Below are positions 40,793 through 42,675 of a DNA stretch of 64,000 nucleotides, piece after piece; position 1 is the stretch's first letter, and every line of letters begins with the position of its first letter. Source of the stretch: a candidate division Kazan bacterium GW2011_GWA1_50_15 (lineage in GTDB: Bacteria; Patescibacteriota; Kazan-3B-28); NCBI GenBank assembly GCA_001029795.1, contig CP011216.1, forward strand, positions 6,903 through 70,902, given 5' to 3'. The notes under the pieces are model-generated. The model saw only the letters and a list, made by a program, of their open reading frames with translations. It was not told the origin of the DNA and did not search any database. The position numbers and the translations under genes were made by a program.

Positions 40793-42675
40793 TTTTTGAG
40801 AGTTTGATCCTGGCTCAGGATTAACGCTGGCGGCATGCCTAACACATGCAAGTCGAATGCCGCCAATTTAGAGCTGGTTAGTAGCATTTCTATGCAATGT
40901 AAGTTGAGTGGATGTTTATCTGGTGGCTTTGCGCTAACGAACTTTAAATTGGCGGCATGGCGGACGGCTGAGTAACGCGTGGGAACTTACCTCTAAGTTG
41001 GGTATAACCTGCCGAAAGGCGGGATAATCCCCAATGTCCCGCCAATTTAGTGTTGGTGTTCAAGTAGATGCTAATTGAATGGTGTGATGCTGTTCGATTG
41101 GGCGGACTATCATATACGAACATTAAATTGGCGGGAAAGATTTATCGCTTAGAGAGAGGCCTGCGTTCGATTAGCTTGTTGGTGGGGTAATGGCCTACCA
41201 AGGCTCTGATCGATAGGGGGCTTTAGAGGGTGACCCCCCAGACTGGGACTGAGACACGGCCCAGACTCCTACGGGAGGCAGCAGTGAGGGATTTTCCGCA
41301 ATGGACGAAAGTCTGACGGAGCAATGCCGCGTGAAGGAAGAAGGTCTTCGGATTGTAAACTTCTTTTGCCCTTGAAGATTATGACGGTAAAGGGCGAATA
41401 AGGCGCTGCTAACTACGTGCCAGCAGCAGCGGTAATACGTAGGCGCCGAGCGTTATCCGGATTTACTGGGCGTAAAGCGTCCGCAGGTGGGTTTACAAGT
41501 CTGACATCAAAGCCCTTGGCTCAACCAAGGAAAGGTGCCAGAAACTGTTTATCTAGAGATTGGAAGAGGCTGATGGAACTTCTGGAGTAGGGGTAATATC
41601 CGTAGATACCAGAAGGAACACCAAAGGCGAAGGCAGTCAGCTGGTCCAATTCTGACACTCATGGACGAAAGCGTGGGGAGCGAACGGGATTAGATACCCC
41701 GGTAGTCCACGCCCTAAACGATGGGTACTAGGCATTGGTGGCATCGACCCCCTCAGTGCCGAAGCTAACGCGTTAAGTACCCCGCCTGGGGAGTACGGTC
41801 GCAAGACTAAAACTCAAAGGAATTGACGGGGACCCGCACAAGCGGTGGAGCATGTGGTTTAATTCGATGGTAAGCGGAGCACCTCACCAAGGCTTGACAT
41901 CCTGTTGAAAGCGACTGGAAACAGACGCCCCCTTTTAGGCAACAGTGACAGGTGCTGCACGGTTGTCGTCAGCTCGTGTCGTGAGATGTACGGTTAAGTC
42001 CGATAACGAGCGCAACCCCTATGTTGTGTTGTATTTTTCACAACAGACCGCTGTGGTTAACACAGAGGAAGGTGGGGATGACGTCAAATCAGCGTGGCCT
42101 TTATGCCTTGGGCGACACACGTGCTACAATGGACAGGTCACAATGGGTTGCGAGGCCGTAAGGCGGAGCTAATCCCACCAAAACTGTCCCAAGTTCGGAT
42201 TGGGGTCTGCAACTCGACCCCATGAAGCTGGAATCGCTAGTAACCGCAGATCAGCCATGCTGCGGTGAATACGTTCTCGGGTCTTGTACACACCGCCCGT
42301 CACACCAAGAAAGTGAGAAACATCCGAAATCTCTCGGTTACGAGGGCCTAAGGTGGAGCTCATGATTTGGGTGAAGTTTAACGGCTTCCCATGCGAGTAA
42401 TCGCATGGTAAAATCTAACTATATCGGTGAACTCCGATCCGCCAGTCGGCGGAGGACAACGCCGAGGGAAGTTGGGCTAGCCACGAAGTTCGTGGCGAAT
42501 TCTTGTTAAATTCTGCTAGACAGCAGAACATATAAGTTGCCTTAACCCCGTAGAGACTATACGTTGGCGCCATCGAAAGATGGATGAAGACATAGTCCGG
42601 CACTCTTGGCAACAAGAGATAACAGTTGCGTAACAAGGTATCCGTATCGGAAGGTGCGGATGGAACACCTCCTTT
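40793..42675 (+). rRNA. rrs: 16S rRNA gene, about 1.88 kb, with V1 and V2 expansion segments and a 3'-proximal group I intron
   Basis: agagtttgatcctggctcag at 40800. Universal blocks gtgccagcagcagcggtaatac and aaactcaaaggaattgacgg. 3' end ggatggaacacctcctt. About 340 nt longer than a typical 16S. Confidence 0.9.
42378..42638 (+). ncRNA. Group I intron (ORF-less, about 261 nt) inserted between ...ggtgaagt and cgtaacaaggta of 16S
   Basis: 5' exon ends in U, intron ends in G (omega-G). R-like cgtagagactatacg and S-like gaagacatagtccgg core elements resemble the Tetrahymena R/S sequences. Confidence 0.6.

Follow-up and report, generated by a model that had tools for sequence, protein, structure and literature searches.

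A hairpin cassette that recurs on helix tips of 16S rRNA, 23S rRNA and RNase P RNA and at gene ends in Kazan-related bacteria

We analysed a 64-kb stretch of the genome of the candidate division Kazan bacterium GW2011_GWA1_50_15 (hereafter the window; coordinates are window positions unless another locus, designated by L and a number, is named). Two segments of its 16S ribosomal RNA (rRNA) gene and one intergenic hairpin are closed by the same inverted-repeat arms. All three are copies of a single family of non-coding hairpin cassettes, which appears restricted to one clade; on balance, we favour the view that the cassette is mobile and has a stem that is read in trans. A preliminary description of this DNA had proposed that one element was reused in the three places, in preference to helices that evolved independently. 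This is borne out by further copies elsewhere, and by relatives that have short, unrelated hairpins at the same sites. If anything, that description understated the likeness, as the arms extend to 19 nucleotides (nt) at both ends and the family reaches 23S rRNA and RNase P RNA. Its idea of a small mobile palindrome survives in part: the cassette is gained and lost as a unit, but it does not behave like a classical transposable element, there being no target duplication, no transposase in view and a low copy number.

The three hairpins with their common arms are present as originally described (Table 1). The 12-mer CCGCCAATTTAG, with up to one mismatch, occurs six times in the window, and these occurrences are exactly the six arms; the expectation from dinucleotide shuffles is 0.41, and six was reached in none of 100 shuffles. 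The arms had been taken to be identical over 13 nt. This is correct for 12 nt, whereas the 13th pair is a compensated swap: G–C is outermost in the V1 (helix 6) copy, which is closed by gCCGCCAATTTAG...TTAAATTGGCGGc (gCCGCC...GGCGGc), and C–G is outermost in the V2 (helix 9) and intergenic copies (cCCGCC...GGCGGg). Although the arms common to all three hairpins amount to 12–13 nt, the likeness reaches about 19–21 nt, and the V1 and V2 copies have 19-nt direct repeats at both ends with 89–95% identity. The start-to-start offset between these two copies is exactly 179 at either end, so both elements measure 96 nt, or 98 nt if the closing pair is counted. Their interiors have no significant similarity to one another. 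Of the four longest inverted repeats in the window, three are these hairpins, and their fold z-scores against shuffles are −5.3 (helix 6), −9.7 (helix 9) and −6.3 (intergenic). The covariance model R1 gave 72.1 bits on the plus strand against 49.1 on the minus strand for the helix 6 copy, 75.5 against 45.3 for the helix 9 copy, and 52.7 on the minus strand against 47.1 on the plus strand for the intergenic copy. Within the 16S gene, the Rfam alignment of small subunit rRNA places insertions of 76 nt (V1) and 75 nt (V2) in hairpin loops of the model, and alignment to Escherichia coli 16S puts the copies on helix 6 (about 69–100) and helix 9 (184–193), in the V1 and V2 regions.

Table 1. Cassettes, their arms and host gene in the window, and occupancy of cassette sites in the window and at other loci (aa, amino acids; ORF, open reading frame)
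Feature	Position	Strand	Remarks	Cassette present in	Other hairpin at the site
16S rRNA gene	40792–42674	+	1883 nt; two cassettes and a separate ~250-nt intron-like insertion; Rfam RF00177, 1404 bits		
Cassette, long form	40859–40956	+	98 nt including closing G–C pair; tip of 16S helix 6 (V1)		
Cassette, long form	41038–41135	+	98 nt; tip of 16S helix 9 (E. coli 184–193; V2)		
Cassette, short form	26559–26619	−	61 nt; terminator-like; between murJ and 218-aa ORF		
Helix 6 copy, 5′ arm	40859–40880	+	GCCGCCAATTTAGAGCTGGTTA		
Helix 6 copy, 3′ arm	40935–40956	+	TAACGAACTTTAAATTGGCGGC		
Helix 9 copy, 5′ arm	41038–41059	+	CCCGCCAATTTAGTGTTGGTGT		
Helix 9 copy, 3′ arm	41114–41135	+	ATACGAACATTAAATTGGCGGG		
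Site 16S h6				window, L008	short: L004 (GNRA-capped)
Site 16S h9				window	short: L008
Site 23S H63				L022	short: L017, L029
Site 23S H68				L017, L029	short or unrelated: L022
Site 23S H98				L012, L017, L022	short or unrelated: L029
Site RNase P P3				L007	
Site RNase P P12				L020, L021	
Site RNase P P19			flanked by the 3′ strands of P2 and P4, where the optional helix P19 belongs	L013, L020	
Site murJ 3′ end				window only	other hairpins: L035, L037, L038, L043, L044
Site DUF378 3′ end				L035 (short form), L043 (long form)	ordinary terminators: window (19367–19397), L038, L044

Each copy caps an existing hairpin of a transcribed RNA, sitting in register on its tip as a coaxial extension; the flanks, inspected in 16 copies, are mutually complementary and constitute the host helix. 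From 16 distinct copies, the basal stem has the consensus 5′ CCCGCCAAUUUAGRGYUGGU...ACGARCYUUAAAUUGGCGGG 3′, the distal part being variable. It comprises 21 pairs, with 94.9% of cells paired and compensatory changes in seven pairs. The covariation score was matched by none of 500 shuffles, and pairing falls to 50% when the partner is slid by one column. Pair 13 is G·U and position 18 is a G·G mismatch, each in 13 of the 16 copies, and at position 16 the combinations C·A, U·A, U·G and C–G all occur. The G·U pairs make the two strands of the cassette distinguishable, and the sense orientation of the host RNA scores better in all 14 of the copies in stable RNAs. This orientation, together with the conserved non-Watson–Crick features, argues for selection at the RNA level as well; the compensatory changes and the discrete lengths point to the same constraint.

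The cassettes fall into two size classes, of 57–63 nt and 96–100 nt. The long form adopts a rod-like fold that is interrupted by an internal loop or bulge and bears, on the 3′ side, a motif of the GGURGAUAA type. Interiors resemble each other across different host sites, as seen for 23S H68 and RNase P P19 (z = 5.7), for 23S H98 and RNase P P12 (z = 4.0) and for the window helix 6 copy and 23S H63 (z = 4.0). Thus whole cassettes, and not the arms alone, share ancestry. Arm identity is ~90–100%, against 84% for the host 16S and ~78% for the host 23S, a difference that is in part an ascertainment effect of scanning with exact arms.

Copies beyond the window were sought, and were found in other Kazan-related loci, in 23S rRNA and RNase P RNA as well. 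One genome per GTDB species was scanned for both 12-nt arms with 30–60 nt between them, a pattern for which about one chance hit was expected. Eight loci were returned, five of them with extended 19-nt arms and three being unrelated perfect hairpins. Two of the copies belong to Kazan bacterium RBG_13_50_9, at 16S helix 6 (61 nt, with the same closing G–C pair as the window helix 6 copy) and at 23S H98; one is a terminator hairpin after the DUF378 gene of Kazan bacterium RIFCSPHIGHO2_01_FULL_44_14; and two lie within RNase P RNA genes, at P19 and P3. JGI metagenomes were scanned with the 20-nt 3′ arm alone, chosen so as not to re-find the 16S of this species. This gave 13 loci, in nine of which the 5′ arm, left unconstrained, was also present, with copies in 23S H68 and H98 and in RNase P P12 and P19. 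A relaxed search then revealed second copies in the same RNAs (23S H63 and H98; RNase P P12). All sites were mapped by comparison with E. coli and Rfam.

The covariance model provides an estimate of copy number which does not depend on exact arms. Over 232 kb (the window and 16 loci) R1 recovered the known copies only, exactly three of them in the 64 kb of the window. Over a further 144 kb it found one new copy, that of L043, and over 51 kb of control DNA from outside the candidate phyla radiation (CPR) it found zero. About 186 kb of Kazan-lineage protein-coding DNA holds ~3 copies, all at gene 3′ ends, and the density per kb is ~60-fold higher in the 16S gene (two in 1.9 kb) than in the rest of the window (one in ~62 kb). 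In the 700-kb Kazan contig METB01000001.1, each exact-pattern scan matched one canonical copy. Rfam contains no family that the cassettes hit at the gathering threshold, there being only chance-level hits of the miRNA type at E up to 10, and the cassettes themselves do not match the group I intron core (RF00028). We also considered a link to phages, and rejected it: scanning a viral contig collection with each arm gave no cassette, the sole match being a chance one inside a phage gene.

All cassette hosts appear to be Kazan-related lineages of the CPR, a group of very small, uncultured bacteria. The MurJ encoded in the window is 86% identical to MurJ of Kazan bacterium RIFCSPHIGHO2_01_FULL_44_14, and the MurJ of L035 is 86% identical to that of the window. 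Loci L017, L022 and L029 could not be placed by the identities of 5S and the 3′ end of 23S, which were uninformative, and their ComM-5S-23S synteny with Kazan RBG_13_50_9 served instead (ComM 53–62% identical). The RluB of L020 is 53–57% identical to Kazan RluB, and L007, L013, L020 and L021 have udk-rnpB synteny, with Udk 63–70% identical. One locus, L013 (CAVUAC010000031.1), is a GTDB species-representative metagenome-assembled genome labelled Bacteroidetes, and carries an RNase P cassette. Its neighbouring 516-aa protein is 77–91% identical to proteins of Bacteroidota and Ignavibacteria. Its ORF 1976–2764 joins residues 1–50 of a sugar transferase of Kazan type to residues 139–333 of a GFO_IDH_MocA protein that comes from a gene block of the Bacteroidota type. 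As judged from these sequences, L013 is most likely a chimeric assembly in which a CPR fragment (tRNA-udk-rnpB) has been joined to a Bacteroidota genome. We therefore rejected cross-phylum transfer to Bacteroidota by way of this contig; as the chimera explains the label, there is no evidence of spread of the cassette outside the deep CPR clade.

Comparison of orthologous sites shows, at the level of sequence, that the cassette is gained and lost between relatives (Table 1). The gene order DUF378-rluB-...-ftsH-murJ-lepA-hrcA-grpE-dnaK is retained in relatives, so the terminator sites are orthologous. Since some relatives have short, unrelated hairpins in these places, the cassette comes and goes as a unit. 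Comparison with 16S genes of relatives, which the preliminary description had proposed as a check, gave the same picture: helix 6 is short in L004 and helix 9 is short in L008. The 16S of L004 is nearly identical to that of the window and keeps the helix 9 copy. On parsimony, the pattern of presence and absence demands repeated gains, losses or both at rRNA, RNase P and terminator sites. An attempt to reach more relatives' 16S genes by way of the upstream 209-aa protein gave only one distant homologue, in which the synteny with 16S is not kept.

The 16S contigs of L002 (at window-equivalent 42308–42368) and L005 (from window-equivalent 41723) switch sequence partway. As these are mosaic assemblies, caution is needed with any strain comparison inside the 16S gene, including the short helix 6 of L004, and no conclusion was drawn from L002 and L005 about strain variation inside the cassettes. 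At the murJ 3′ site of L035 (METB01000001.1), positions 11586–11677 form a different hairpin, of 92 nt and Y-shaped. Its outer CCCGC...GCGGG and its flanks (A7 upstream and GGCGACGA downstream) are those of the window, and it looks as if the interior alone had been swapped.

The intergenic copy is flanked by convergent genes, murJ (24975–26552, +), whose product has a Pfam MurJ match at E = 3.6e-98, and a 218-aa ORF (26635–27291, −). On the minus strand the hairpin (26619–26559) begins 14 nt past the stop of this ORF and is followed by U7. A hairpin and U7 placed just after the stop give this copy the form of an intrinsic terminator for the 218-aa ORF, and a G+C-rich hairpin, an immediate U-run and a nearby stop codon are all present. 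The consensus scanner for terminators cannot list it, the hairpin being beyond its loop limit. U-rich tails also occur 3′ of the cassette copies of L014 and L043.

How might such a family be maintained? In the account that we favour, the cassette would spread at the DNA level, a copy from another locus replacing the apical loop of a transcribed hairpin. The route would probably be recombination or template switching between hairpins, which we consider likely because neither transposase nor target duplication was seen. The G+C-rich base, CCCGCC/GGCGGG, could supply short homology; several empty sites carry stems of the CCCCG...CGGGG type, which resemble it. The stem would stay constant because a trans-acting factor reads the cassette in RNA. 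By analogy with the action of RNase III on rRNA intervening sequences (IVSs), the likeliest factor would be a double-strand-specific RNase that excises the cassette from the precursors of rRNA and RNase P RNA, and excision of this kind would make insertion into essential RNAs harmless. At gene ends, the hairpin with its U-run would act as an intrinsic terminator. The sites occupied are tolerated ones, on solvent-exposed, insertion-permissive helices, and E. coli accepts insertions at h6, in the h9/h10 area, at H63 and at H98 (PMC2441807).

A number of observations weigh against this account. No transposase, target-site duplication or autonomous partner was seen at the loci, and the mechanism of mobility is conjecture. 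An RNase III gene was not found in the window and the loci, which are a very small sample. Copy number is low, at three in 64 kb and few in about 375 kb of window and loci by R1. The scans demanded exact arms, so the conservation of the arms is partly an ascertainment effect; the unconstrained 5′ arm of the metagenome scan and the L043 copy found by the model lessen this concern without removing it. The unrelated interiors of the V1 and V2 copies argue against recent copy-and-paste between the two 16S copies. L004 is a k-mer assembly and other 16S contigs of the species are mosaics, so its short helix 6 may come from a very close relative and not from this strain itself. Lastly, the tight 96–100-nt class, held over six host sites, and the G·G mismatch suggest a structured module that is retained, not a spacer that is discarded.

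This last point leads to the main rival of excision, which the present data cannot separate from it: that the cassette is a retained expansion segment, a useful but dispensable addition whose stem is the docking site for one clade-specific protein or RNA. By analogy with archaeal L7Ae on kink-turns (K-turns), the two ribosomal subunits, RNase P and the 3′ ends of some mRNAs would share this partner. We regard this as possible, although not probable. It accounts well for the sense orientation of every stable-RNA copy, for the conserved G·U, G·G and compensatory changes, and for two length classes that are held over six host sites despite divergent interiors; the enrichment per kb in the 16S gene, arms that are far better conserved than the host rRNAs, and the confinement of every site to a solvent-exposed helix tip tolerant of extension fit as well. 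No candidate partner was found for it, however, and reading of the basal-stem sequences disclosed no K-turn signature. Any given site is empty in some close relative, so that no single copy is essential, some copies are plain terminators, and the exact-arm ascertainment inflates the conservation. The broader proposition, suggested by the same analogy, that a prefabricated helix on both ribosomal subunits, on RNase P and at the 3′ ends of some mRNAs is read by one trans-acting factor through the 21-bp stem with its G·U and G·G, is more doubtful still. If it were true, the cassette would be a bacterial counterpart of the archaeal and eukaryotic K-turn–L7Ae principle, and a live case in which the insertion of a mobile, ready-made helix gives rise to rRNA expansion segments.

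The remaining explanations are simpler, and fit less well. A classical, transposase-driven selfish element, resembling miniature inverted-repeat transposable elements (MITEs) or repetitive extragenic palindromic (REP) sequences, would insert at random and survive where harmless. The terminal inverted repeats (the 19–21-nt arms), the patchy distribution among relatives and the existence of intergenic copies are what would be expected of it. It is nevertheless unlikely, as none of 16 copies has a target-site duplication, the flanks being host helix and not direct repeats, the copy number is very low, the stable-RNA copies all have one orientation, every copy is in register exactly on a hairpin tip, and no transposase gene adjoins any locus. 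It is very improbable that the helices are independent or convergent, or that one 16S helix was duplicated locally and the intergenic match is coincidental. The unrelated interiors of the h6 and h9 copies, and the fact that CCCGCC/GGCGGG is a common kind of stem, would suit such an origin; 19–21-nt arms in at least 16 copies, in three RNA genes and terminators of many organisms, the excess of arm matches over chance in the window, and interiors that are homologous across host sites do not. Repeat-induced misassembly or misbinning in a metagenome-assembled genome might be invoked, given that some metagenomic 16S contigs of the species are mosaic and that one copy-bearing GTDB contig is chimeric, but as an explanation of the cassettes it is hardly credible. 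Identical h6 and h9 copies are present in at least five independent assemblies of the species (ENA, NCBI, JGI and Logan) and the intergenic copy in two NCBI assemblies, and this recurrence means that the window cassettes are not an assembly artefact. Related copies, moreover, lie within rRNA and RNase P genes that are normal in other respects.

Several other genes were noted in the window and at the loci. A Xer-type tyrosine recombinase gene (Phage_integrase and SAM-like N-terminal domain) lies at 46857–47822 (−), beside recO and 6 kb from the 16S cassettes; it is the only recombinase gene seen in the annotated part of the window, and nothing ties it to the cassette. L035 carries a pair resembling a diversity-generating retroelement (bAvd and a reverse transcriptase) at 174–1578, 3 kb from the cassette. 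Genes for the bAvd-like '23S rRNA intervening sequence protein' (PF05635) occur in L038 (20795–21157) and in the non-CPR locus L041 (15912–16304). No link was established between the cassette and either the bAvd/reverse transcriptase pair or the PF05635 genes.

Several known systems share features with the cassette. IVSs are found in helix 25 and helix 45 of the 23S rRNA of Salmonella, Leptospira and Coxiella, and in the 16S rRNA of Helicobacter and Campylobacter. In both cases the tip of an rRNA helix gives way to an extended stem-loop, which occurs sporadically among close relatives, the ends are conserved and the interiors variable, and a long basal duplex suits RNase III, the 21 pairs of the cassette being long enough in principle. 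Unlike an IVS, the same cassette is found on five rRNA helices of both subunits, on three RNase P helices and in terminators, and its length classes are tightly conserved. IVSs are defined by excision and rRNA fragmentation, which for the cassette are a proposal. We know of no IVS in RNase P RNA.

Palindromic repeats include the Correia/nemis elements of Neisseria, the REP and enterobacterial repetitive intergenic consensus sequences of enterobacteria, and the Rickettsia palindromic elements. Among MITEs and palindromic repeats there are some that function as terminators or as substrates of RNase III, and some that persist within functional genes. With these the cassette has in common that it is a small, non-coding inverted repeat which can lie at gene ends; it differs in having no target duplications, no high copy number and no transposase or REP-associated tyrosine transposase (RAYT) in sight, and in its strict orientation, in register on the helix tips of stable RNAs. 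The palindromes of REP/RAYT systems are imperfect, 20–40 nt long, abundant and extragenic, whereas the cassette is 57–100 nt, of low copy number and mostly inside RNA genes. Mobile palindromic and double-hairpin GC-cluster elements of mitochondria also land in rRNA genes. Like the cassette, they are short hairpin repeats that spread through a compact genome, where variable regions of rRNA tolerate them; in contrast to it, they are organellar and of high copy number, with no conserved orientation reported. To our knowledge they do not occur in RNase P RNA.

New rRNA helices are usually inferred from ancient 'insertion fingerprints'. Here, helix acquisition is visible between close relatives, one helix coming and going at at least eight tips in three essential RNAs, and at terminators. 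Were the cassette excised, the stable RNAs of this clade would be fragmented, and we would know of no earlier IVS-type element common to 16S rRNA, 23S rRNA and RNase P RNA. Were it retained, it would be a bacterial expansion segment whose stem is sequence-specific, and a common binding partner would then be probable.

Of the sites occupied, h6 (es1), the h9/h10 area (es3), H63 (ES27L) and H98 (ES39L) are sites of expansion or tolerance (Yokoyama and Suzuki 2008, PMC2441807). Like an expansion segment, the cassette extends a helix coaxially at such a surface site. Expansion segments are site-specific and grown in place, whereas here one prefabricated helix is reused at many sites, including those of a non-ribosomal RNA. 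The K-turn bound by L7Ae is similarly a module that recurs in several stable RNAs, as the cassette does in 16S, 23S and RNase P RNA. The basal stem of the cassette, however, is a regular helix that contains a single G·U and a single G·G and lacks the 3-nt bulge and tandem sheared G·A of a K-turn, and the cassette is a sequence-conserved hairpin of 57–100 nt with no known partner protein.

Insertions that CPR bacteria carry in their rRNA genes are mostly regarded as introns, in the account of Brown et al. 2015 given by Tsurumaki et al. 2022 (PMC9297842), and 'large extensions of helices' have been described in CPR RNase P RNA (Lui et al. 2021, PMC8172020). Our observations concern the same group of organisms, with both rRNA insertions and extended RNase P helices. 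In these reports the insertions, where they are 100 nt or longer, are mostly treated as introns or left unclassified, and a sequence-conserved hairpin shared by 16S, 23S, RNase P RNA and terminators is not described; nor did we find a description of such a shared cassette in the open-access literature.

The host 16S gene has other unusual features. Its identity is 84% with the 16S of Kazan bacterium RBG_13_50_9 and 73% with that of E. coli, and its true 3′ end is GGAACACCTCCTT at 42662–42674. A third insertion, of ~250 nt and without an ORF, is found at 42367–42619 (insertion 42378–42628), between E. coli ~1495 and 1496 in the h44/h45 linker; Kazan bacterium RBG_13_50_9 has no such insertion in its 16S. 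It covers the full group I intron model RF00028 with 28.9 bits (E about 1e-5; the gathering score is 50), and looks like a group I intron; it is an element of a different kind from the cassettes. At the 515F primer site (41417–41440), which reads GTGCCAGCAGCAGCGGTAATAC, A replaces C in ...GCCGCGG..., so that the common V4 primer would mismatch this 16S. On the practical side, the cassettes, along with the intron-like insertion, both lengthen and disrupt V1/V2 of the 16S, and cause metagenomic assemblies and alignments of the lineage to break. The region 3′ of the gene (42675–46000) holds transfer RNA genes at 43886–43958 (−) and 44243–44316 (+) and protein genes, and no 23S rRNA gene was found there; the rRNA genes are thus unlinked, as reported for many CPR bacteria.

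Insertions and extensions other than the cassette are also present in the host RNAs of other loci. The 23S rRNA gene of L022 (Ga0155755_101, 3300–10050) is split by three insertions of ~750–890 nt besides its cassettes, and that of L017 (1869–3337, oriented) contains one of this size. The RNase P RNAs of L013 and L021 are 600–628 nt long, compared with 367 nt for the model, and include helix extensions unrelated to the cassette, of ~130 nt in P12 of L013 (about 1500–1640) and of ~150 nt at the P19 position of L021.

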